Origin: a virus
Lineage: Duplodnaviria > Caudoviricetes
Direction: 5' to 3' (one strand)
DNA: 29,420 nucleotides
IMG/VR virus record: IMGVR_UViG_3300037755_000739
Location: 1-29,420 of that record
The position numbers and the translations under genes are program-made. A model generated the notes under the pieces. It had not been told where the DNA came from, searched no databases, and saw only the letters and a list, made by a program, of their open reading frames with translations. Positions 806-13,561 of the stretch are shown here, one piece after another (position 1 is the stretch's first letter; every line of letters starts with the position of its first letter).

Positions 806-1012
806 TCAGTTGATGAGACCGAAGATCCGCTCCAGCACCACGGTCACAAACGAGCCGACCCCCATGCACAGCATCGCCCCCAGCCTCCAGCGCTGCTCCA
901 GGCGGTCGACGCGCGTTGTGACGCCGACCTGGCCGTTGCCGTCCAGGATCCTGATCACCCGATCCACCTTGTTGTTCAGGTGATCGAACTGGAGCTGTAC
1001 GTCCCTCTCCAT
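806..1012 (-). CDS. Small membrane protein, holin-like (coiled coil plus C-terminal TM)
   Basis: 68 aa; N-terminal coiled coil, GNGxxG-rich linker, RVDRLEQ, then one hydrophobic segment (LGAMLCMGVGSFVTVVL); XhlA/holin-like architecture. Confidence 0.5.
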   Translation of the reverse strand: MERDVQLQFDHLNNKVDRVIRILDGNGQVGVTTRVDRLEQRWRLGAMLCMGVGSFVTVVLERIFGLIN

Positions 1013-1021
1013 TTCGGGCGC

Positions 1022-1492
1022 CTATGCTGTCAGTTTCCCGTTCTCCTCGACGTTCAGCCGCGTGCTGATCTCCATCAGGAACTCGTGATGCAGCCGGACG
1101 ATGGTCTTGATCAGCACGACCATCAGGACGACGACGAAAAACAGGACGATGACCTGCAGGACGATCACGATCAGCAGCGGCGCCCCGAACAGGCCGACCG
1201 CCTGCGTGGTCTTCGCGAAATTCAGCAGCCCGCCCTCGGCCCTGGTGTCGGATTTCTGGTCGGCCCCGGCGTCGATCTTGGCCAGGGCCGCTTCGAAGCG
1301 GGCCTCGACCTCCGTCTCGATCTTGGCGTCCACGTCGGGGCTGGCCTGCCGCACAGCGCCGCCGCGGTCGGCCGCCGTCGTGCAGCCGGCCAGCAACAAC
1401 ACAATAACGATCAGCACCGGCCTCGCCGCGTCAACGGCCCGGCGCGAAAGGGCGGCGCGGCCATCGCGGCCGCGCCGCCGCTGCACGGTCAC
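1022..1492 (-). CDS. Lipoprotein with C-terminal TM helix; candidate unimolecular spanin
   Basis: Arg-rich n-region, h-region VLIVIVLLL, lipobox LAG-C37, about 60-aa polar region, long TM segment (about aa 100-133); GTG start overlaps the upstream TGA. Confidence 0.6.
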   Translation of the reverse strand: MTVQRRRGRDGRAALSRRAVDAARPVLIVIVLLLAGCTTAADRGGAVRQASPDVDAKIETEVEARFEAALAKIDAGADQKSDTRAEGGLLNFAKTTQAVGLFGAPLLIVIVLQVIVLFFVVVLMVVLIKTIVRLHHEFLMEISTRLNVEENGKLTA

Positions 1493-1848
1493 GAAACCTT
1501 GCCGGTCTCGGGCGGCGTGGTCTGCGCTCCCTTCATGATCTGCTGGAGCTGAGCGACGGTGGCCCCAAGCGTCGACAACGTGCTTGCGATGTCGTTGCCC
1601 GTCGAGCCCTTGACCCAGGCCAGGGCCTCCATCGGATCGATTTCAAGCAGACTCTTGGCGAGCTGGCCCGACACCACCCGGTCGAGCGTCTGGTGATTGT
1701 TCACCGAGCTCACCAGCGAGTTGTTCATCGCCTGCTGGAACGCGACCGCGTTTTGCAGCGCCAGATTCGCCAAACTCGCCGGCTGTCCGGCGATGCACTT
1801 CGTGTTGTCGTTGGCGACACTGTCAACGAGACCCTGATCAGCAGCCAT
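1489..1848 (-). CDS. RebB-like (R-body/killing trait family) protein, 119 aa
   Basis: DSVANDNTKCIAGQPA, LALQNAVAFQQAMN and LLEIDP..A...GND match the Reb pattern as I recall it (DSVTQxNTKxxGxxPA ... QNxVxxQQ); A/Q/N/S/T-rich; purine-rich RBS GAGGAAAGGG. Confidence 0.65.
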   Translation of the reverse strand: MAADQGLVDSVANDNTKCIAGQPASLANLALQNAVAFQQAMNNSLVSSVNNHQTLDRVVSGQLAKSLLEIDPMEALAWVKGSTGNDIASTLSTLGATVAQLQQIMKGAQTTPPETGKVS

Positions 1849-1863
1849 AACACTACCCTTTCC

Positions 1864-2079
1864 TCAAGGCTGGGCCTCTGCCGCGCGCGGCAGAGGCATT
1901 TCCCGGATCTTCTGGAGAATGGCCGACAATCTCGCCTCGAGCTGTCCGAACTCGCCGCTCTCCTGAAACTGCGGATATTTCGCGCCTGCGTCGCGCAGGA
2001 TGGTCAGGCACACGTCGGTGTGGTGCCGGATGTTGCTGACGTAGGAATGCAGACCGGCAATGAGGTCTTCGTCTGACAT
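1864..2079 (-). CDS. Hypothetical protein (71 aa)
   Basis: GGGGG RBS, fits between the giant gene and the Reb-like gene, amphipathic helical pattern. Confidence 0.7.
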   Translation of the reverse strand: MSDEDLIAGLHSYVSNIRHHTDVCLTILRDAGAKYPQFQESGEFGQLEARLSAILQKIREMPLPRAAEAQP

Positions 2080-2093
2080 GGGGCCCCCCAGGG

Positions 2094-5000
2094 CTATCCC
2101 GCCAGCGCGTAATCGCGGAGCTCGGCCCGCTGCTGCCGCGACTGGCGGCGGCCTTCGGCGCTTCGCTCGCGGAACACAGGCAATGGTAATGCGTCCCGCT
2201 GCTGCCGTAAAGTCCGATATGTCTCGGACAGCCGCTGCACATCAGGGTCTGTGCGCCAGTCCCGCCCGCCCCGTTCGGCCTCGCGGCGAGCCCGCGAGAA
2301 GTCGCGCATCACCGCCCCCAGGCGGTCGTTGATCTGCCGCTGCTGCTCGTAGGATTGGCGGGCGACGTCCACCGGGAACAGCCGCAGCCCCAGGAACTGT
2401 CCGGCGCTGGCGCTGGCCTCGGGCACCGAGGTCGGCACCCCACGCCATCCGACCTGTTCCAGGAGGTTCAGCGGCCGCACCATCCGCGCCAACCGCTTGG
2501 CGTGCGGACTCATGGCAACCCCCAGCCATTCTTTCTGCTGTCCCTCGTACTCGACGATCGGCTTGTCCCAATAGAAGTCGCGGTTCAGCGCGCCCTCGAT
2601 GACCCCCTTCAGGAACGGATTGAGCCCCTGGACCGCCGCCTCGGCCGTCGCCCCCGGCCCCTTGACCCCGGCCAGCGGCGTGGTGCCCAACTCCTTCACC
2701 GGGAAGAGCCGGGTGAGGTTCAGAAAGTCGGGCCGTTCGCCGGTCGACAATTGCGTGCCCAGCTCCTCGGCGACGTGACGCGGGCGCAGCGATGGCGGCA
2801 GGGTATCCTCGCCGGCGAAGGCGGACTCGATGTTGCCGCGGATACGCGGAATCAGGGCGGTGATCTCCGGCCGGGCCATCGCCATCTTGAACTGCAGGAT
2901 GGCGTTGCCCTTCATCCACCCCCAAAACGGGAAGATCCGCCGAAAGGTTTTTTTGTCGAAGTCGGTCATGTCGGCCGACTGGTTCAGGGCCAGACGCTTC
3001 TTGCTGATGGCCATCGCCAGATCGTCGCCGCGCCGCAGCCGTTCCAGCATGAACGACAGGGCCATCCAGTCCTCGACCGCCACGTTGATCGCTCGAAATC
3101 CCTTGAAATATGCGCTCTCGCCCAGATTGAACCGCCAGCCGGGGATGACACCGCGGACCTTGCCGGGGTCGCGGTGGATCCCCAGCATCGCGTGGGCCAC
3201 GTTCTCACCGATCGGCCGCCGCGGGTCCCAGGTCGATCGAGCGGCGTCCGAAAAACCCCATTCGGTCCGGAAGCCCCGCTGGACGCCCTGCTCCATTTCA
3301 ATGCCGTACAGCCCGCGGCCCAGCTCGCCGTGCTCGATCGACAGCAGCTCCCACAGTTCCTCGAGGTTCAGGTCCCGCACGTCGGCGGGCAGCCCCTTGA
3401 CGTAGTTTCCGACTTTGCGGTCGAGATTGCGCCCCAGGTGGTAGTCCTCCATCAGCTTCCGCGTGGCCGCCCAGGTGTCGTACTTGAAGGCATCGAATTG
3501 GTTGGCCTGGAAGACGCCCGACAACAGGTTCGTCGTCGTGTACGGGAATACGCCCAGCACCATGGTCCGCCACATGGACGTCGCAAAGTCCAGCGCCTTG
3601 AGCAGGGCGTGCGGCCGATCCATCTGATTGGTAAAGCGCCGGAACTCGCGGGCCACGTCCTCGCTGAACGCGTAGCCCTTGGCAATGTTGCCGAAGCGGG
3701 AATCGCTGATCCGCGCGAATCCATCCGGCAGCGAGCCGAAGTCCTTGACCTTCACCGCCCAGCCCTCGCGCAGGCCCTGTTGAACCGCCTCGCGCAGGAA
3801 GTCCGCGCCGCCGACGGCCATGTGCTGGGCGTAGCGGCGATCGACCCAGAGCCGCACCGGGTCGGTCATGAAAGCGACCCCGGTCTGCTCGTACAGTCCG
3901 TTGATCTCGGCGATGGTGCTCTCGCGCAAAAACAGCCGCCGCAGCATCGATCGATGCGGGTCCGCCATGTCGCGGAATCGCGGGTCATCGAGGATCTCGG
4001 CGATGGCCTGGGCCATCCCCTCGCCGGGCTCTGGGATCGGGATCGCGTCCTCTCCGCGCCGGGACCTGGCCGCATTCTCGCGGTCGATGGCCTCCAGCAT
4101 GCGCTGGTACGCGGTGCGTCGATACGCCTCGTTGGACATCGACCGTTTCTCGACGCCTTCCAGCTCTCGCCACGCATTCTCCCAGGCCATCGATCGCCGG
4201 CGGATCGACTTGCCCAGGATCGTCCGACCATCGCCGATGTAGTGCGGCACGTATCCGATGCCGCGCTGGGTCGTTGCGGTGATGTCGGCCGTTTTCAGAC
4301 CGGCGGCGCGTTCGGCGGCCAGCGTTTGCTGCTCCAGGGCCACCATGCGGCGCACCATGTCGGCGATCGGCGCGGCGAAAAGGTCCTCTGGGTTCAGCCG
4401 CTTCGGCAGCCGGCCTCCAGCCCCGGCAATAACAGCCGCCGGCGGGCCCACTCCTCCAGCGCCGCCGGCGGCCTCCGCTCGGCCTTCCGTGGCCTCTCGA
4501 ACCCTCATCGCATCGATAAACGCCTGGTCATCCTCGAAGCCCCGGCCCAGGCGCTTCAGGACCCGCTGTTTGAGTTTCAGGCGGTCCGCCTTGTCGGCCG
4601 GGAAGGGTTGCCCGTAACGCCGGGCCCGCTCCCACTCGGCCTTCAACCGTACCGCCTCGTCGCGCAGCCGAGCAATGACCTCCGGCGTCCCGCCGGCCTC
4701 AATCGTCGCCCGCATCGCCGTCAGAATATCGGACCCGAATTCCGTCAGCACCTCGTGGCCCGCCGAGTCGCGGGCGATCATGTCCGCAAGCTTGTACATC
4801 AGGCCGCCGACCGGCCGACCCTCATCGACGCCTTCCAGGCGATCCAGGATCCGTTCCCACTTGCCGCCGCGGATACCATGCCCCAGCCGCAGCAGCGCCT
4901 TGTCAATCTCCGCCGCCACCTGCCCCTGGCGCCGCCCGCCGATCTTGCCGTACCCAACCAGCCGGCCGCGCTCCGCGGCATCCTTGCCCTTCAGCCAGGC

Positions 5001-8000
5001 GACCACCTGTGTCCGCGACAGCTCGTCGCCAGGCAGTTCACCGGCCGCCATCGCGTCCTGCAGCGCCTGCACGAATCGATCGTTGCCACGCGGCACGTCA
5101 TCCAGCGGCGTTAAGGTGCGGCGGATCAGGTCCCCCAGCTCGGCCGGCGGATCGGCGCTGCGGGCCTGGTCCATCAGGGCGACGATATCGTCGACGTCGG
5201 ACCCACGGTTCAGCCGCTCGACGATCTCGCCGGCCTCCTGCTCGGTCAAGTCCTCCAGGTTGTGCCGCATGGCATTGGCCAGCCGCTCGCGGGTCTCGAA
5301 GACCCGCCGCTCATGGTCGGCGACGCTCTCGCTGGCGCCTTTGAGCGGTTGGATGCGGCGGGTCAGGGCCGCCCGATCGCTCCACTCCGAATCCCATCGA
5401 ATCACCGGCGATCGACGGGGATTGACCACCGCCCCGACCACCGCCGCCGGGCCGCGGATCCCGGCGTTGGCCAGGGCCACCGCCGCATCGCGCAGCGTCG
5501 CCCCGCTGTCCATGGCGTCATCGACCAGAATCACCAGGGCATCGTCCGGTATGTCGGGCCATTTCCATCCAGCCGTGAATTCACGGCGGTGGGCGGCCTT
5601 GCGCAGGATGCCCGCCGGCACGCGCTCCATCTTGATGTGCGAGGCCAGCACCGGCCGGACCTCGGCCCGACGTCGACCGACGACCAGCGCCAGCCGCTCG
5701 GCCATGGCCGCCGCGGTGTGGTTCTCCTTGGTGGCGCTGGGCACCGGCACCAGGATGATCGGTCGATCGCCGGCCAGGTCTCGCAGTTTCTCACCGGCAG
5801 CCGGGCCGATCGCTTTGGACGCCCACAGCTTCGCCTGTTGCGCGTGTCCGTTTTTTCCTGCCTGGTAGTGCTGCTTGAAGTCCGGACGCTGTGCGGTAAT
5901 GCCCTGCAGCTCGAGGTCGAGCGCCTTCTCCGGGATGTCGCGCGGCCGCGCCGTCGGGTCGAAGATCTGCTCGATGAGCCGCAGAATGCGATCGTCCTTT
6001 TCGGGTCCGCCGAATCGCAACCGACTCCACAGTTGGCGCAGCCAGTCCATGGCCCGTTCGAACATTTTTGTCATCCGCGGATCGCCGGCCTTGCGGGTGA
6101 TGGCGTAGTGCGCAAAATATTGTGCGAATCCCTCGCGCTGCGGGCTGGCCTCGTGACGGGCGAGCTGCTCCGACGAGAGCTTCAGGGCATCGGCCTGTTG
6201 CGGCGTCAACGCCCCGCCGGCGACGTACTCGGCCAGGTCGCGATCGCCCAGGTGCCGCTCGAAGATCCGGACCCGGTCCTCGATCTTCATCCCCGCCCAC
6301 CAGTCGCTGAACGTCTTGCGCTCCGCATCGTTGAATACGTAGTCGTAGGCGAAGTGCCCAATCTCGTGCAGCGGCTCGGTGGCGTGGGCCAAGCCGCGGC
6401 CCAGGATGATCTCCGCCTTGTTGCCCAGCATCCGGTACGAACCGGCGAATTGCTTCTGGGCCGCCTGCACGTCGATGCGGGCCAGGTGATCCTCGTGCAG
6501 ATCCTCGATGGCCATGTCGAAGAGTTGGGCCTCCGGCTCGGGGATCCCCGCATCGCGCACCGCCTTGGCCACCCGCGCGTGTTCCTGCGATCGGTAACTG
6601 GCCTCGGCGGCCCTGGCCGCTGCCGTCGCGGAGGCCTCCGCCGGCGCCCGCATCGTCCCGGAGTCAATCAGGATCGGCAGACCGGGTCGCACATCCACAT
6701 CCCGTCCGTCGGCCAGCGGCCGCAGCAGGGCGCCGTATTGCTCGTCCACCGACTCGACGATGTGCACCCGCCCCGCGATCTCCATTTCAGCCCCGACCAC
6801 CAGCTCCTCGAAATCGATCTCCTGCGGCGCGGCACCCTTCGTCATCAAGTGACCGACTCGCTCTCCGTCCAGCGCCGCCTCGTAAAGGGCGACGTCGTAC
6901 GCCCCCTGCATTCCGACCATCTCCGGGTTCTTGCGGGCGAACTCCAAGACCGCCTCGATCTTCGCCGGGCTGGCCAGCCCGGCGTGTTCGCGCATCGCCG
7001 CCGCCATGAGCTCGTAGGGGTCGCGTCGGCCGGCGACGTGGGTTAGCTTGGCGACGATGTCCTCGGCGGGAACTCCCTTCTCGCCCTTCTTCATCACCCC
7101 CAACAACCCCTTGGCCTTGAAGCTGCGGATCTCCTGCTCGCTGAACTCGCGGGTGAAAACATCGAGCTCGGCCCGGCTGCGGAACTTGTACCCCGGCAGC
7201 AGCAGTGACCCCAAATTCGTGACCGAATCGAAACCGCCCTCGAGGGCGGTGGCGTCGATCGTCAGAACGTCGGCCAGCTCGTCGTGCATTTTCAGGATGC
7301 GTGACGACGCGGCTTTCAGGCCGGTCGCTTTGTTGATCATCTTCGGCGGCCTCGGCATCAGCTCCGGCACGTCGCGCAGGGCCTGGCGGCGCAGGCGCTC
7401 GCCGCGCAGCCGCATCCGCTCTGCCGCCCGCAGCGCCTCATCGGCCTGCCGCGCCGTCTCGGCCAAGCGGCGCTGGCTCATCGGGTCGAATTGGCCAGTC
7501 ACCGGCAGCTGCCGCAGCTCGGAGAGGCGCACGGCCTGCTCGGCCGTCCCCCGCCGCGCAAGCGACGCTCGTAAGCTCGCCTCGACGAATCCGGGGTCGT
7601 AGCGACCGGTCATTTCCGGCCGAATCCGGACCACAAGAAAGTTGCGCGGCAGCGCGTCGCCCGACCGATACCGCTGCACCCAGCCCCCGATCCGGCTGAT
7701 GATGACGTCCCCGTCTTTCAGCGGCCGCCGCGGCTCGGCCCCCGCTCCTCGCGCCGCCGACTCGTCGGTCCACGTCTCGAAGAAATCCCGCAGTCGGCCT
7801 ATGGCTGGTGTCGAAGAGGCCTGCGCCACCGTCCCCTCGGGGCCCTTCCGCGGCAGCAGCTCGGCGGCCTGCCCCTCGTAAAGCGGTTGATCGAAAAGAC
7901 CCGGCACCGGGTCCGGCGGGAGTTGCGAGCGGACCGCGATCAGCTCCGGGCTGTCGGCCTCGAACCGCGCCGACCAGGCGCTCTTGATCTGCTTGGCATC

Positions 8001-10694
8001 GAACGCCACCCAGACCTCGCCATCCTGCTTGCCGACGTGGAAGATGCCGTCGTAGCCGCGGGCCTTGAGGATCTCGTTGGCCCGCCGCTTGCTGCCGGCG
8101 GCCCGCACCAGCTGCTCATAGACCCGGTGGCCGCGCATCGACGATTTCGACCACTTCACCTGCTTACCGAAGTCCCTGTAGACCGCGTCGATGTCGGTGG
8201 ACACCTCTCCCGCCGCGCCCATGACGCGCTTCAAATCGGCGAAGATCTCATCGAATTCCTTGCGGGCGATGTGCCCTGGCAGGCGAAAGGGCTTCTTGAT
8301 CGAGGCAAACACCGGGTAGACGGCGCCGGGCAGTTCTTGCCCGTCCTTGATCGTTGCTGAGTCGCCGGCGACGCCCGGATCGGCGGCCAGGTAGAATGCG
8401 GGCTCACCGGCGTCATTGAACAGGCCGGGCTTGGCCATCTTCGGATCGAATGACTGGATGTCGCCGGCCGGCGTCCCGTGGAACAGCACCTTCGGCTCGC
8501 CCTGCCGGGCGACATAGACCTCGTTCGTTGCCGCCCGCTTGATCCTTTTGACCGCCTCGCGCTCCAGGGCCTCGAACCCGCCGGCATTGGCCTGGTGCCA
8601 TTGCTTCCAGCCGGCGGTCGCCGGGTCATCATCGACGATGCGGCCGAACTCCTCGCGCGCCGGTCGCGCCGGGTGGTGGGCCATGTGATGGATGCGATCC
8701 CTGACCGCCTGGATCATGAACGGCTGCCACTCATCCCCCGGTATCATCCGCTCCGCGGCCCGCGTCGCCTTCGCCTTGTCCATCTGCCCACCCGACTCGA
8801 ACATCGAAGCGATCGCCTCGCGGTCCTCCGGGTCCACCTGCGAAAAGTCCCAGACCGTCGTTCGCAAGCCGCGCGGATCGACTTCACCCTTGCGGCCGCC
8901 GACCACCTGCGAGCCGCTGAACCATTCTCGGAAGTCCGACCGCACCGACGGCGCCCGCGGCAGCAGCTCAGCCACCGGCCTGGCCGTCGTCCGCGGACCG
9001 GCGTCATCGCCCAGCCGCTCGAAGACCTTCCGCATCACCGCGTCGGTGGATTCCATGACGGTGTCGACCGCATGGCCCGCATCGTCGAGATAGGTCATCA
9101 GTTGGGCCCGCAGCGACTCTACCGCGTCCCGGACCTCGAACGGATCTCCGCCCTCGATCGCCTTGTTGATGACGCCCAGGTTCTCGATGGCGGCCACCGA
9201 TACCGCCCCCGCCGTGTCCGGCGTCAGGCCGCTTTGCTTCGCCCCGTCGGCGACCGCCTGCTGTAGATCGCGCAGGACGCCCGCCTGATCGCGCCGCACC
9301 CGCCCCTTCGCCTGCTCCAAGTGTTTCAGGGCCAGGGCCATCAGCGGCGTCTTCGGACCGATTCCGATCTTCGCCGCCTGCTCGCGGATGCTCGCCCCCG
9401 CCCTGCTTAATCCCCCCATCACCTGCTGGGCCGACTGGCTGGCCTTGATGGCCGCGTCGGCCTTGTCGATGGCCGCGCCGATGATCGGCATGGTCCTGAA
9501 TTCGCGAAATGCCCTGGCGTTCGGCAGTGCTTTGAACGGCGTCCCCAGCCAATCGCTGGCCATGCCCGCCAGGTCCAGGGGCACGTCGGCCACCCGGGCC
9601 AACAACTCGATCGGCTTGGCGACCGCAGTGGCCAGGGGCCGGCCGAACCTCGGGATCTTTTCCAGGGTCTTGCCCAGCACTTGGCCGCCGATCTGCCCCG
9701 CCGTGGTTGCCGCCTTGCCGGCGATCAGGGCAGGCCCCAGGACAAGGTGCCCTAGGGGCAGCGTCTTCATCGCGTGGGTTTCGAGGCCCAGACCCCAGCG
9801 TCCCCCATAGCTCGGCAGCCCCTCGGCCGCCAGGTCGACGGCTCGACCGCGGGCGAAGTCTACGAACCCCCGTGCGGTCTCCGGCAATTCCTGCACGGTC
9901 CGCTGGGCCAGCTCGGCTGGCTGCTCGATGGCCCGCGTCCGCAGCAGCAGATCGTCGAGGGCCTCCGGCCTCACGTGCCGGCCGGCCACGGTCAGCCCCT
10001 TGCCGAACTGCCTGGCGCGGGCGATCTCCGGGGCGAGCTGCGCCGCCGACTTGGCGCCGGTCTTGAAGGTCGCCCGGCCGACGCCGGCCAGCCCGGTTGC
10101 CCAGGCCAGCGGGTCGGTCACCACGTCCAGCAGCAGTCCAGAAAGGAAGTGCCCCACCTTGCCGATGGTCGATTCCGGCTCCCAGCCCATCGCCCGGATC
10201 ACGTCCGAGCCGTAGATCTTGCGCAGTCCGGCAAACTCCTCCTTCGACGAAGGTTGCACACCGAAAAGCTTGTGAAAGACCAGGTTCGCCGCCAGATTGC
10301 GCGGCAGGTCGAGCGTTTCCAGGGCCGTCTGCCACCAGGTGCGAGGGTCGGCGCTGATGTCCTCCGGCGGCGAGTTGCGTATGTACTCGGCCAGCTCGTT
10401 CTCAATGGCCTCCGGCCCGGCATCCACCAGCGACCGAAACCGTGGATGCTCACCGCGGCGCTCGGCGCCGGCCACCGGTGAAGGTTGCGTTTCGTAACCT
10501 CTTGCTGCGACAGAGCCTGCCGGCGGCTGAAAATACGAATTGGAATAATCCGCCGGCGGTTGGGTGACGCTCGGGAACTCGTCCAGGGTGGGCAGGCTTG
10601 GCAGCTCGAACGACAGCGGCGCGGGCCGCCGCCGACGCGGCTCCAGATAGAATCCGCCGCCGGTCAGCGCAGGCAGGCCACCCATCATCGTCAT
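2094..10694 (-). CDS. Giant polyvalent internal virion (ejection) protein, 2866 aa: ART-PolyVal-like, HsdS-like, HExxH peptidase, PRTase and LPD38-like domains
   Basis: Motifs FREWFSGSQVV..GEPKVLFHGT..FYLA..VYPVFASIKKP..GYDG..VAFDAKQIKSA; LKDGDVIISRIGG..GTAEQAVRLSELRQL..QRRLAE; LHEIGH..REGFAQ; ILVPVP..VILVDDAMDSGATL; RRIFPFWGW..LNPFLKGVIE..NRDFYWDKPI; positioned last among the ejection genes. Confidence 0.88.
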   Translation of the reverse strand: MTMMGGLPALTGGGFYLEPRRRRPAPLSFELPSLPTLDEFPSVTQPPADYSNSYFQPPAGSVAARGYETQPSPVAGAERRGEHPRFRSLVDAGPEAIENELAEYIRNSPPEDISADPRTWWQTALETLDLPRNLAANLVFHKLFGVQPSSKEEFAGLRKIYGSDVIRAMGWEPESTIGKVGHFLSGLLLDVVTDPLAWATGLAGVGRATFKTGAKSAAQLAPEIARARQFGKGLTVAGRHVRPEALDDLLLRTRAIEQPAELAQRTVQELPETARGFVDFARGRAVDLAAEGLPSYGGRWGLGLETHAMKTLPLGHLVLGPALIAGKAATTAGQIGGQVLGKTLEKIPRFGRPLATAVAKPIELLARVADVPLDLAGMASDWLGTPFKALPNARAFREFRTMPIIGAAIDKADAAIKASQSAQQVMGGLSRAGASIREQAAKIGIGPKTPLMALALKHLEQAKGRVRRDQAGVLRDLQQAVADGAKQSGLTPDTAGAVSVAAIENLGVINKAIEGGDPFEVRDAVESLRAQLMTYLDDAGHAVDTVMESTDAVMRKVFERLGDDAGPRTTARPVAELLPRAPSVRSDFREWFSGSQVVGGRKGEVDPRGLRTTVWDFSQVDPEDREAIASMFESGGQMDKAKATRAAERMIPGDEWQPFMIQAVRDRIHHMAHHPARPAREEFGRIVDDDPATAGWKQWHQANAGGFEALEREAVKRIKRAATNEVYVARQGEPKVLFHGTPAGDIQSFDPKMAKPGLFNDAGEPAFYLAADPGVAGDSATIKDGQELPGAVYPVFASIKKPFRLPGHIARKEFDEIFADLKRVMGAAGEVSTDIDAVYRDFGKQVKWSKSSMRGHRVYEQLVRAAGSKRRANEILKARGYDGIFHVGKQDGEVWVAFDAKQIKSAWSARFEADSPELIAVRSQLPPDPVPGLFDQPLYEGQAAELLPRKGPEGTVAQASSTPAIGRLRDFFETWTDESAARGAGAEPRRPLKDGDVIISRIGGWVQRYRSGDALPRNFLVVRIRPEMTGRYDPGFVEASLRASLARRGTAEQAVRLSELRQLPVTGQFDPMSQRRLAETARQADEALRAAERMRLRGERLRRQALRDVPELMPRPPKMINKATGLKAASSRILKMHDELADVLTIDATALEGGFDSVTNLGSLLLPGYKFRSRAELDVFTREFSEQEIRSFKAKGLLGVMKKGEKGVPAEDIVAKLTHVAGRRDPYELMAAAMREHAGLASPAKIEAVLEFARKNPEMVGMQGAYDVALYEAALDGERVGHLMTKGAAPQEIDFEELVVGAEMEIAGRVHIVESVDEQYGALLRPLADGRDVDVRPGLPILIDSGTMRAPAEASATAAARAAEASYRSQEHARVAKAVRDAGIPEPEAQLFDMAIEDLHEDHLARIDVQAAQKQFAGSYRMLGNKAEIILGRGLAHATEPLHEIGHFAYDYVFNDAERKTFSDWWAGMKIEDRVRIFERHLGDRDLAEYVAGGALTPQQADALKLSSEQLARHEASPQREGFAQYFAHYAITRKAGDPRMTKMFERAMDWLRQLWSRLRFGGPEKDDRILRLIEQIFDPTARPRDIPEKALDLELQGITAQRPDFKQHYQAGKNGHAQQAKLWASKAIGPAAGEKLRDLAGDRPIILVPVPSATKENHTAAAMAERLALVVGRRRAEVRPVLASHIKMERVPAGILRKAAHRREFTAGWKWPDIPDDALVILVDDAMDSGATLRDAAVALANAGIRGPAAVVGAVVNPRRSPVIRWDSEWSDRAALTRRIQPLKGASESVADHERRVFETRERLANAMRHNLEDLTEQEAGEIVERLNRGSDVDDIVALMDQARSADPPAELGDLIRRTLTPLDDVPRGNDRFVQALQDAMAAGELPGDELSRTQVVAWLKGKDAAERGRLVGYGKIGGRRQGQVAAEIDKALLRLGHGIRGGKWERILDRLEGVDEGRPVGGLMYKLADMIARDSAGHEVLTEFGSDILTAMRATIEAGGTPEVIARLRDEAVRLKAEWERARRYGQPFPADKADRLKLKQRVLKRLGRGFEDDQAFIDAMRVREATEGRAEAAGGAGGVGPPAAVIAGAGGRLPKRLNPEDLFAAPIADMVRRMVALEQQTLAAERAAGLKTADITATTQRGIGYVPHYIGDGRTILGKSIRRRSMAWENAWRELEGVEKRSMSNEAYRRTAYQRMLEAIDRENAARSRRGEDAIPIPEPGEGMAQAIAEILDDPRFRDMADPHRSMLRRLFLRESTIAEINGLYEQTGVAFMTDPVRLWVDRRYAQHMAVGGADFLREAVQQGLREGWAVKVKDFGSLPDGFARISDSRFGNIAKGYAFSEDVAREFRRFTNQMDRPHALLKALDFATSMWRTMVLGVFPYTTTNLLSGVFQANQFDAFKYDTWAATRKLMEDYHLGRNLDRKVGNYVKGLPADVRDLNLEELWELLSIEHGELGRGLYGIEMEQGVQRGFRTEWGFSDAARSTWDPRRPIGENVAHAMLGIHRDPGKVRGVIPGWRFNLGESAYFKGFRAINVAVEDWMALSFMLERLRRGDDLAMAISKKRLALNQSADMTDFDKKTFRRIFPFWGWMKGNAILQFKMAMARPEITALIPRIRGNIESAFAGEDTLPPSLRPRHVAEELGTQLSTGERPDFLNLTRLFPVKELGTTPLAGVKGPGATAEAAVQGLNPFLKGVIEGALNRDFYWDKPIVEYEGQQKEWLGVAMSPHAKRLARMVRPLNLLEQVGWRGVPTSVPEASASAGQFLGLRLFPVDVARQSYEQQRQINDRLGAVMRDFSRARREAERGGRDWRTDPDVQRLSETYRTLRQQRDALPLPVFRERSAEGRRQSRQQRAELRDYALAG

Positions 10695-10796: not shown

Positions 10797-10925
10797 TCAT
10801 TTTTTCTTCCGCCGCTTTCGCGCGTGCCTTTCGACAGCGATCTTCTTATCGACTTCGGTCTTGGGGACCGATGCGACCTTGCGGGCCAGTGCGTCGAACG
10901 CGCCGAATCCTTTGGGCTTTTTCAC
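10797..10925 (-). CDS. Small basic protein (42 aa) downstream of the IS transposase
   Basis: GAAAGGA RBS, GTG start, MKKPKGFGAFDALARKVASVPKTEVDKKIAVERHARKRRKKK*; absent from the ORF track because of its size. Confidence 0.7.
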   Translation of the reverse strand: MKKPKGFGAFDALARKVASVPKTEVDKKIAVERHARKRRKKK

Positions 10926-10946
10926 GCGAGTCCTTTCAAGTGAGTG

Positions 10947-11447
10947 TCATAAATCCGGCATCGTCGATGCCCGCCAACAAATGATCCGCTCGCGACGGCG
11001 CGTGTGCATGTTGGCCGCGCGTCCGCCTACGTAGGTGGTGTCAGCTTCGGCCGGGCCGTCGAACTTATCGCCCGCCTCAATCTCCATTGCCTTTCGGATT
11101 CGATGCAGCATGAACCACGCGGATCGCTGTTCGACGCCGAGCGTTCGTGCCAGTTCGTGGCTGCTCACGCCGTTTTTGCAATTGGCAATAGCCCACACGG
11201 CGACGAACCACTTATCGAGGCTGAGTGGGCTATGCTCGAAAATCGTGCCGACCTTGTGCGAGAACTGTTTGCGGCAGTCTTTACACCGCAACAGGCGACG
11301 GGTCGCAATCTCGCCGATCCGCTCGCCATTGCAGGCCGGGCAGACGGGCGAGCCGCCCGCCCAGCGGATGTCCCGCATGTAGTCCTCGCAGACCGTGATA
11401 TCAGCGAAGTAGCGAGCGGCTTCGAGCAGCGTTTTCGGGGTATCCAT
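10947..11447 (-). pseudogene. IS1595-family transposase, truncated by internal deletion
   Basis: Zn ribbon CPAC..CKDCRKQFSHKVGTIFE, HTH (GVSSHELARTLGVEQRSAWFMLHRIR) and first catalytic motif EADTTYVGG are present; rest of the DDE domain is absent. Confidence 0.9.
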
Positions 11448-12305: not shown

Positions 12306-12566
12306 ATGATTCCCACCATGAACTACGGCAGCCGCGCGCCGCGGCCCAGCGACACGCCCCTTCGGCGGTTCCTGCGACTCATCTGGTTTCTCGGCAGCGC
12401 CGTCTGCTTCATAGGCGTGAGCTGGCTCTCGATCGAAATCGCCGTCCACGGCCCACGCGGTGGCGCACGAGACGAAATTAACGCGCTAATCATTGCCCTT
12501 TGTGGCGGCGGACTTTTGGCCCTCTGGGCCATCATCCGCTGGATCGCGCACGGCAATCGCCCCTAG
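12306..12566 (+). CDS. Two-TM membrane protein (moron-like)
   Basis: Two hydrophobic segments (LIWFLGSAVCFIGVSWLSI; ALIIALCGGGLLALWAII); fills an otherwise empty gap; convergent stop shares CTAG with the neighbouring gene. Confidence 0.7.
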   Translation: MIPTMNYGSRAPRPSDTPLRRFLRLIWFLGSAVCFIGVSWLSIEIAVHGPRGGARDEINALIIALCGGGLLALWAIIRWIAHGNRP

Positions 12567-13561
12567 TCGCTCTTCCGATATGCCTTGACCACGTCCTCCG
12601 GCGTCAGTCGGTGCTGGCGGAACCGTGGATGGGCCTCCATCAGCGCCTTCGCCCGCTGCAGCGCCTCATCGGCTTGCTTGCTATAGGTGCCCAATTGGAA
12701 AACCCCGGATGGCTCCTGCCATGGCTCTTCATTGCCCCCCAAAGCTTGTGACACATAGCCAGGGCGGCTTTCATCCAGCATCCGCGCCGCCTCTTCCAGC
12801 AGCGGTTGCCGCTGCCTGTCGCGCCAGGCCAGGTAGCCGGGGATCTTCTCCAGATCGGCCTGGGTCCTGGCCGACCGGACCAGCTCCGCATCCTCCGGGC
12901 TCGCCAGCCCATCGGCGAACATACGATCGATCAGGTCCTCTCTCGTCTGACGGGAGACCTCCGGCGGCTCGACGCCCAGAATCTGCTCCGCCCAAAACGG
13001 GTCCTGCGACAACAGCACCGACTCGGCCGCCTCGCGCCGCTTGGCATCCGCTTCCTGCTCCGGCGTGCGGATGTTCTCCATCTGTCGGCGGGCCAATTCC
13101 TGCTGGATGCGCGCGGCCTCGGCCTGAGCCGCCTGTCGCTCCAGCTCCGCCTCGCGCGTCGGCCCCGCCCGCTCGTGTTCGCGCTCCGCGGCTTCTCTGG
13201 CGAACCGCTGCTGCGAACCCTGCAGAGCCATGGCCCGGTCGTAGTCCGCCCGCTGGATGTCAGCGCGCGACTGCTGTTCGCGCTCCGCGGCTTCTCTGGC
13301 GAACCGCTGCTGCGAACCCTGCAGAGCCATGGCCCGGTCGTAGTCCGCCCGCTGGATGTCAGCGCGCGACTGCTCCGTCGCCCGACCCTGCCGCCGCTGG
13401 GCGATCATGTTCATCACCCGGGCCATCAATGGATCCTCGGCCCCGGGCCCGCCGCGATTGGCCAGCAGCGCCGCGGCCGCCTGCCCGCCTTCCGGGCCCT
13501 GCCGACGTCGACGCGCCAGTTGCGCCGCGAAGACCAGATTGGCATGTTCGTTGGGGTCCAC
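12563..13561 (-). CDS. Putative ejection/internal virion protein (coiled-coil, A/E/Q/R-rich)
   Basis: GTG start overlapping the upstream TAG; composition and position; internal 33-aa duplication. Confidence 0.75.
   Translation of the reverse strand: MDPNEHANLVFAAQLARRRRQGPEGGQAAAALLANRGGPGAEDPLMARVMNMIAQRRQGRATEQSRADIQRADYDRAMALQGSQQRFAREAAEREQQSRADIQRADYDRAMALQGSQQRFAREAAEREHERAGPTREAELERQAAQAEAARIQQELARRQMENIRTPEQEADAKRREAAESVLLSQDPFWAEQILGVEPPEVSRQTREDLIDRMFADGLASPEDAELVRSARTQADLEKIPGYLAWRDRQRQPLLEEAARMLDESRPGYVSQALGGNEEPWQEPSGVFQLGTYSKQADEALQRAKALMEAHPRFRQHRLTPEDVVKAYRKSD
13176..13373. repeat. Perfect 99-bp tandem duplication (2 copies, in frame)
   Basis: 13176-13274 is identical to 13275-13373; encodes QSRADIQRADYDRAMALQGSQQRFAREAAERE twice. 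Confidence 0.95.

Follow-up and report, generated by a model that had tools for sequence, protein, structure and literature searches.

We identified a phage-associated family of Reb-like genes that sits mainly in phage late regions and is biased toward lysis-type neighbours. One member lies in a 29,420-base virus record (the whole of which is hereafter called the window) whose minus strand carries late genes of the podovirus type; a 119-aa gene there is, by its sequence, a distant relative of RebB, an R-body protein. The three-gene cassette proposed around this gene in the first-pass annotation, in which it was grouped with a u-spanin-like lipoprotein gene and a holin-like gene, was rejected as a conserved system.

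R-bodies have been observed alongside phage-like particles for 50 years, and we found no description of a phage Reb family in the literature covered (titles and the starts of abstracts, with subscription journals mostly outside the coverage). According to excerpts of the published work, R-bodies extend when triggered by acid and damage phagosomes (PMC13733733, PMC13689365, PMC11909080); extension of the Pseudomonas aeruginosa PA14 R-body occurs below pH 5.6, and needle-like structures were seen protruding from live Dictyostelium fed with R-body producers (PMC13733733). The excerpts also describe studied R-body loci as holding several reb genes together with accessory genes (PMC3583457, PMC8322103), give no Reb homologs in phage genomes in the survey of Raymann 2013 (PMC3583457) and, in the case of a 2026 paper, call direct evidence for a link between R-bodies and phages lacking (PMC13689365).

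The window showed 99.9% identity to a second IMG/VR record (G001), whose ends it bridges, and the two together close into a circle of ~37.1-37.4 kb, with 7,652 bases of the circle outside the window. An independent contig from another run covers positions 721-1675 with zero differences. Metagenomes from soil and sediment were the source of the records holding this sequence, and no RNA dataset was among the holders listed. The features referred to below are as follows:

806..1012, minus strand: gene for a 68-aa protein with a C-terminal TM helix
1022..1492, minus strand: gene for a predicted lipoprotein, 156 aa from a GTG start
1451..1479, minus strand: 12-bp GC stem-loop 3′ of the Reb-like stop, within the N-terminal codons of the lipoprotein gene
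1489..1848, minus strand: Reb-like gene, 119 aa, single copy
1856..1865, minus strand: purine-rich ribosome-binding site of the Reb-like gene, GAGGAAAGGG, from the sequence
1864..2079, minus strand: 71-aa orphan upstream of the Reb-like gene
1874..1897, minus strand: 24-nt palindrome (10-bp hairpin) upstream of the Reb-like ribosome-binding site, at the 3′ end of the 71-aa gene
2094..10694, minus strand: gene for a likely ejection (internal virion) protein of 2866 aa with an ART-PolyVal domain
Minus strand: late genes recognised by Pfam and PHROGs (terminase, SU10-type adaptor, internal virion protein and the 2866-aa protein)
L007:2501-10152, the gap in G001 beyond the window: integrase and repressor-like HTH proteins

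All four ORFs of the cassette region are on the minus strand downstream of the giant gene, which places the cassette last in the virion operon, at its distal end. The position and size of the 2866-aa product, a polyvalent protein, make it likely to be an ejection protein; its ART-PolyVal domain spans residues 731-908, with a weak PRTase match at 1700-1747. The three cassette genes and their junctions are real: the GTGA overlap of the Reb-like stop and the lipoprotein start (1489-1492) and the 9-nt spacing from the lipoprotein TAG to the ATG of the 68-aa gene were both confirmed as first described. Pfam, PHROGs and NCBIfam gave zero direct matches for any cassette gene, and a gene of 294 aa that lies beyond the cassette on its downstream side is an orphan. 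The sequence CATCAACTGA occurs twice in tandem at 780-815, reaching across the stop of the 68-aa gene and the beginning of a putative ORF of 127 aa (411-794). No primase, helicase or polymerase was recognised in the closed ~37-kb circle.

The Reb likeness that the first-pass annotation had read from the 119-aa protein was borne out, although by profile only. The protein itself matched none of the Pfam families at E≤1, PF11747 included, and did not reach the curated cut-off, while 11 of 22 aligned homologs matched PF11747 at E≤1 (best 2.7e-7). An HMM of the family matched nine of 11 canonical Rebs at E<0.001 with 10.9-39.6 bits, E being calculated within this 11-sequence set, and the ESM feature score of the 119-aa protein to RebB clusters was 0.93. 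Compared with RebA/RebB (PF11747; rebABCD of Caedibacter taeniospiralis and rebP1P2 of P. aeruginosa PA14), the family shares the N-terminal core by profile as well as a similar length, a helical prediction and an Ala/Gln/Asn/Thr-rich make-up, which is also the composition of the 119-aa protein. It differs in being phage-borne and mostly single-copy, in having an added helix and a TTPP tail, and in its separate branch, and regulators of reb clusters were not seen with it. In the tree, 48 family rows split from nine canonical rows with a support of 98/100; the tree was midpoint-rooted and its canonical rows come from two genomes only.

The C-terminal tail of the family reads K-x-x-Q-[TS]-T-P-P, commonly K-x-x-Q-T-T-P-P, with K106 and P113 as invariant, family-specific residues. 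An ending of the form K-x3-4-T-x-P was detected in 126 of 135 members; none of the 11 canonical Rebs has the stricter K-x-A-Q-[ST]-x-P. The AF2 model of the 119-aa protein was helical at low confidence (pLDDT 60.6; helices 5-69, 72-82 and 87-108), and the length together with this predicted fold would suit a RebB-type protein (~100 aa, alpha-helical). The clustering of reb paralogs with accessory or regulatory genes, another feature of the RebB type, was not found here, where a single copy stands without either of the partner families described below; the closed circle holds no second Reb-like copy. Searching the PDB by sequence gave zero matches, and the fold search of BFVD, for which the weak model was the query, gave no match at E≤0.001.

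A profile search recovered 500 clusters at 50% identity (254 of them at E≤1e-10), the weakest of which may include canonical Rebs. Members were found in 32 viral (IMG/VR) loci and in 134 metagenome matches, 80 of which were taken in, some of them short loci of uncertain viral origin. Scanning 185,579 GTDB genomes with the pattern yielded eight loci only, five among terminase, portal or tail genes (by eye) and three on contigs of 2.5-3.2 kb. No family member was detected in 400 other Planctomycetota genomes, in the 50,697 phages of INPHARED (two queries) or in the 72,556 plasmids of PLSDB (one query). The Reb-like gene was called in 104 of 120 loci, which fell into 41 clusters at 80% identity, the present phage included; the gene caller, which also errs on short high-GC loci, overlooked it in the other 16, and these were excluded from the cluster counts. 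The carriers are podo-type phages, sipho-type phages and prophages, and the gene was found at varied sites, namely after the tail tube, after the terminase, before the head protease and among holins. Its upstream neighbour had the same orientation in 36 of 39 cases. The family is single-copy in 35 of the 41 clusters, and the family profile found the phage copy as the sole one in five carrier genomes. Tandem copies occur in the remaining six clusters, with arrays of 2-3 Reb-like genes (L046, L126, L136, L078, L045 and L073) that resemble bacterial reb clusters.

Linkage of the three genes was not conserved. In the neighbourhood search, a gene with a lipobox and a TM helix flanked the Reb-like gene in only two of 41 clusters, those of the present phage and of its closest relative (L059; 71%), where the order is TM gene, Reb-like gene and lipoprotein gene. 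The lipoprotein of that relative has the same architecture as the 156-aa protein, without sequence similarity to it. In one group of prophages, the Reb-like gene is optional, because 36 of the 37 gpW-portal junctions seen among the viral loci of the 68-aa family had no insert and just one carried a 494-bp Reb insert. GC-rich stem-loops were noted on either side of the Reb insert in L054 (7896-8382) and related loci from Planctomycete prophages.

What did persist across unrelated phages is the enrichment of the family beside small membrane (holin-like) genes, as the grouping first proposed would lead one to expect. Small TM genes occupied 22 of 141 positions within two genes of the Reb-like gene, against 11 of 301 positions at least four genes away (p 2e-5), and 22/124 against 11/226 when same-strand genes only were counted. 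Per cluster, a small TM gene was near in 15 of 29 fully flanked clusters and at 19 of 112 null centres, with the clusters in these counts being partly interdependent. The bias persisted with same-strand counts and with a looser threshold; the stricter threshold overlooked the lipoprotein of L059. The position may explain part of it: lysis genes and inserts both tend to be placed towards the end of an operon, and 13 of 30 informative loci are no more than four genes away from that end.

The absence of an endolysin from 197-2079, as first reported, was confirmed by Pfam, PHROGs, lysin queries and a motif scan, and the scan of the rest of the genome that the first-pass annotation had called for recognised none in the whole ~37-kb circle. 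Pfam gave no lysin among 28 window ORFs and 31 gap or extra ORFs, nor did PHROGs among 28 window and 22 gap ORFs; the best hit of six lysin queries against all six frames had an E of 0.028 and lay in a non-gene frame, and catalytic motifs, searched as approximate patterns, matched twice, both in non-gene frames. The present phage may encode a novel hydrolase, since most of its genes match no library. Elsewhere in the family, PHROGs recognised holins in L035, endolysins in L118 and both in L094; in L099, Pfam recognised an amidase 2 kb upstream, and it gave weak M15 matches in L072 and L081; all of the endolysin-linked clusters (L094/L118, L072/L081 and L099) fall within one 12-row clade. Among seven complete or near-complete carriers, scanned through 213 called proteins of 90-420 aa, Pfam detected a lysin for G002 only, namely an amidase located 3.7 kb off on the opposite strand. 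The idea that the Reb-like polymer takes the place of an endolysin found no support, the gene being optional and an endolysin lying within ~2 kb of it in three clusters.

The predicted lipoprotein has an Arg-rich n-region, a hydrophobic stretch at 26-36 and then a lipobox, LAG-C37 (located by a simple script), followed by a linker of ~60 aa and a long hydrophobic helix at ~98-131, with a Kyte-Doolittle mean of up to 3.47 across 19 residues (109-127). An alternative start at 1417 is possible, but it would come with neither a basic n-region nor an SD at suitable spacing. Both topological features of a u-spanin, the N-terminal lipobox and the C-terminal TM helix, are thus predicted, and the u-spanin-like label given to the gene at first stands as far as this architecture goes; it drew nothing from homology, as no homologs were found outside the present phage and Pfam, PHROGs and NCBIfam gave no match. 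Nor was sequence similarity to known spanin families found, which says little, since six of 13 u-spanin families are singletons in the part of the spanin survey used here (PMC6139136). From the same source (Kongari 2018, PMC6139136), the u-spanin gp11 of phage T1 likewise has a lipobox and a C-terminal TM helix and is encoded by a small gene at the end of a late operon. The 156-aa lipoprotein shows no sequence similarity to gp11 and has no adjacent endolysin, and its linker looks helical by eye, whereas the domains of the gp11 family are predicted to be beta-rich (PMC6139136).

The 68-aa protein has a short predicted coiled N-terminus and a single C-terminal TM helix (49-67; KD 1.72), so that by its sequence it could pass for a holin, as a small protein of a late operon with at least one TM helix. 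We take the XhlA-type holin-like proteins, which are small single-TM phage proteins, to be comparable to it. The short coiled N-terminus and the one C-terminal TM helix are common to it, to the XhlA-type proteins and to the GTA protein Rcc01685. Of the initial holin-like label the C-terminal TM helix remains, without a match in Pfam, PHROGs or NCBIfam: unlike XhlA-type holins, the protein matched no holin family in Pfam or PHROGs, neither it nor the relatives scanned had an adjacent endolysin or a holin-family match, and its relatives lie between head-completion and tail-terminator genes. With NCBIfam, a relative of the 68-aa protein weakly matched the Rcc01685 family at 15.8 bits, far below the cut-off of 50; the function of Rcc01685 is given as unknown in the excerpt used (PMC7296036). 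The 68-aa family is common in Planctomycete-type lambda-like (pro)phages. A Reb-like gene was present within the fetched flanks in one of its 79 other viral loci, and six lysin queries found lysins in 0/79 within the same flanks; these loci are redundant, with 19 distinct ones among the 69 in which the gene was called. In the lambda-like phages of this type (L168-L246), the placement between head-completion and tail-terminator genes was noted by eye.

An SD of at least 5 bases preceded 33 of 50 family genes and 147 of 393 other genes, with SD scoring by the gene caller identical for all genes, and a stable 3′ hairpin followed 20 of 28 family genes against 21 of 93 gap-matched controls. The Reb-like gene of the present phage has both a strong SD and a 3′ hairpin, a combination typical of abundant late products, and these signals point to high expression and a high-copy product. 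The stem-loop at 1451..1479 is likely mRNA-stabilising or attenuating. The palindrome at 1874..1897 was not significant (z -1.6), and an upstream hairpin as a family trait was dropped (5/40 vs 20/109). No sigma-70-type promoter was detected in 1-2600, which is a weak test for the likely host.

Two partner families were found beside Reb-like genes and are candidate assembly factors. The first, P1, with a coiled coil and a W..L.N motif, occurs in eight of 41 clusters; the second, P2, occurs in six of 41 and is weakly supported, as the five seeds that have no near-copy gave leave-one-out E values between 4e-4 and 0.27. Both are absent from the present genome, and the 71-aa gene, tried as a P1 partner, was rejected (E=95, rank 454/882 against the P1 HMM). 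In the loci searched, P1 and P2 (L022:2899-3237, L067:6344-7150 and L027:6728-6958) were seen only beside Reb-like genes, with no library match.

The host is likely a member of the Phycisphaerae, because prophages sharing several scaffold, capsid, adaptor, nozzle and giant-protein genes with the window were found in two of 401 genomes of this class, the only one searched, and because the nearest genomic homologs of the 68-aa protein are in prophages of Phycisphaerae and Rhodopirellula. The two syntenic prophages had no Reb match, but both end before the operon end. Close relatives of the giant protein and of the capsid protein were absent from the viral contigs searched. The IS transposase in the window was dropped as a host marker, its matches of 30-47% identity being spread over 29 of 251 genomes without a control phylum.

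What the analysis shows is the Reb homology, the reach of the family, the insertion of the gene as an optional element, its signals for expression and its enrichment beside small membrane genes. The reading that we tentatively put first, with less than even confidence, is that this accessory, probably highly expressed late gene encodes a protein likely to form an R-body-like ribbon, by which progeny would be freed from grazers. The product of the single-copy gene would accumulate late in the infected cell and polymerise into such a ribbon; once the host cell is eaten and acidified, the ribbon would extend and tear the vacuole of the grazer, and the finished virions would escape. The lipoprotein and the 68-aa protein would likely be the phage's own membrane-lysis proteins, u-spanin-like and holin-like respectively, probably acting either on a thin host wall or in concert with a hydrolase that escaped recognition; the Reb-like gene would share their late transcript without being an obligate partner. 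This rescue of virions from grazed cells is the best fit because the gene is late and optional and known R-bodies are acid-extended and phagosome-damaging, with the PA14 R-bodies and the needles from Dictyostelium as precedent (PMC13733733, in excerpt). The canonical Reb homology, the phage association, the varied insertion sites, the upstream co-orientation and the strong SD and 3′ hairpins also agree with it. On the other hand, one subunit may not suffice for a ribbon, given that 35 of 41 clusters are single-copy and the known loci multi-reb; P1 and P2 are absent from the present genome and no toxin cargo was recognised; and the tail missing from all 11 canonical Rebs suggests that assembly may differ. 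The membrane-gene enrichment favours a link to lysis more than this reading needs. The grazer-arming idea, one of two put forward in the first-pass annotation, is no worse a fit to the data than mechanical lysis, which was the other and is the main rival here. Were the Reb-like gene a mechanical lysis aid, which we consider rather unlikely, the ribbon would extend once the holin-like protein had depolarised the cell and, acting with the u-spanin-like lipoprotein, would rupture the wall or the outer membrane, either in addition to an endolysin or in place of one. The nearby small TM genes, the circle without an endolysin, the single lysin-positive carrier among seven and the order in the closest relative all speak for this role, as does G715, where TM-P2-Reb-2TM closes the late operon and a lysin was not found. 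However, endolysins lie within ~2 kb in L094/L118, L072/L081 (weak matches) and L099, the gene is optional and distant from any lysin in the gpW-portal group, the six queries found no lysin in the flanks of any of the 79 loci with the 68-aa family either, and 78 of these have no Reb-like gene, 13 of 30 loci are near the operon end anyway, and no trigger is known by which holin action would extend a ribbon.

A role without any ribbon is unlikely in our view: the diverged Reb fold would form an inclusion or a short oligomer, or act as a minor or bundling component of virions, with recognition via the conserved TTPP tail. It would account for the single copy, the invariant residues of the family-specific tail, the frequent insertion among head and tail genes and the branch separate from canonical Rebs, but a core virion part would hardly occupy unrelated sites in podo- and sipho-type phages or be missing from close relatives, searches of viral and solved structures by fold and by sequence gave no match, and the tandem duplication in six of 41 clusters mirrors bacterial reb arrays. 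Least probable, and quite improbable by our estimate, is lysogenic-conversion cargo, expressed from the prophage and seeding or modifying R-bodies that protect the lysogen population independently of the lytic cycle. The integrase and repressor-like HTH proteins in the circle, the prophages among the carriers and the status of the gene as an optional insert that brings a 3′ hairpin of its own are consistent with such cargo; the co-orientation with the upstream gene, the lack of a sigma-70-type promoter (again a weak test for this host) and the five carrier genomes in which the profile found just the phage copy argue against it.

Returning to the ribbon that frees progeny from grazers, a wider claim, that many uncultured phages burst their host or its grazer via a one-subunit, spring-loaded R-body that is produced along with the lysis genes and able to replace an endolysin, seems doubtful to us. 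If the one-subunit reading is true, the family would constitute the reservoir of R-body genes long suspected in phages, and if a single gene suffices for an extensible ribbon, no simpler R-body would be known and protein-actuator work could make use of it. A role in lysis or in escape from grazers, if true, would amount to a mechanical mode of exit that has yet to be described in phages. In any case, a broad Reb-related family in phage late regions makes the phage link testable via single small genes.

A few other features of the window were noted. The late operon contains a remnant of an IS1595-type transposase (10797-11447, minus strand), in which G001 has 371 additional bases at window position 10980, the window copy being the shorter one. 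Opposed to the late operon, an ORF at 12306-12566 (plus strand) encodes an 86-aa protein with two TM helices, which is possibly an exclusion moron or a second holin candidate. A 332-aa protein (12563-13561, minus strand) has a near-exact tandem repeat of ~32 residues.
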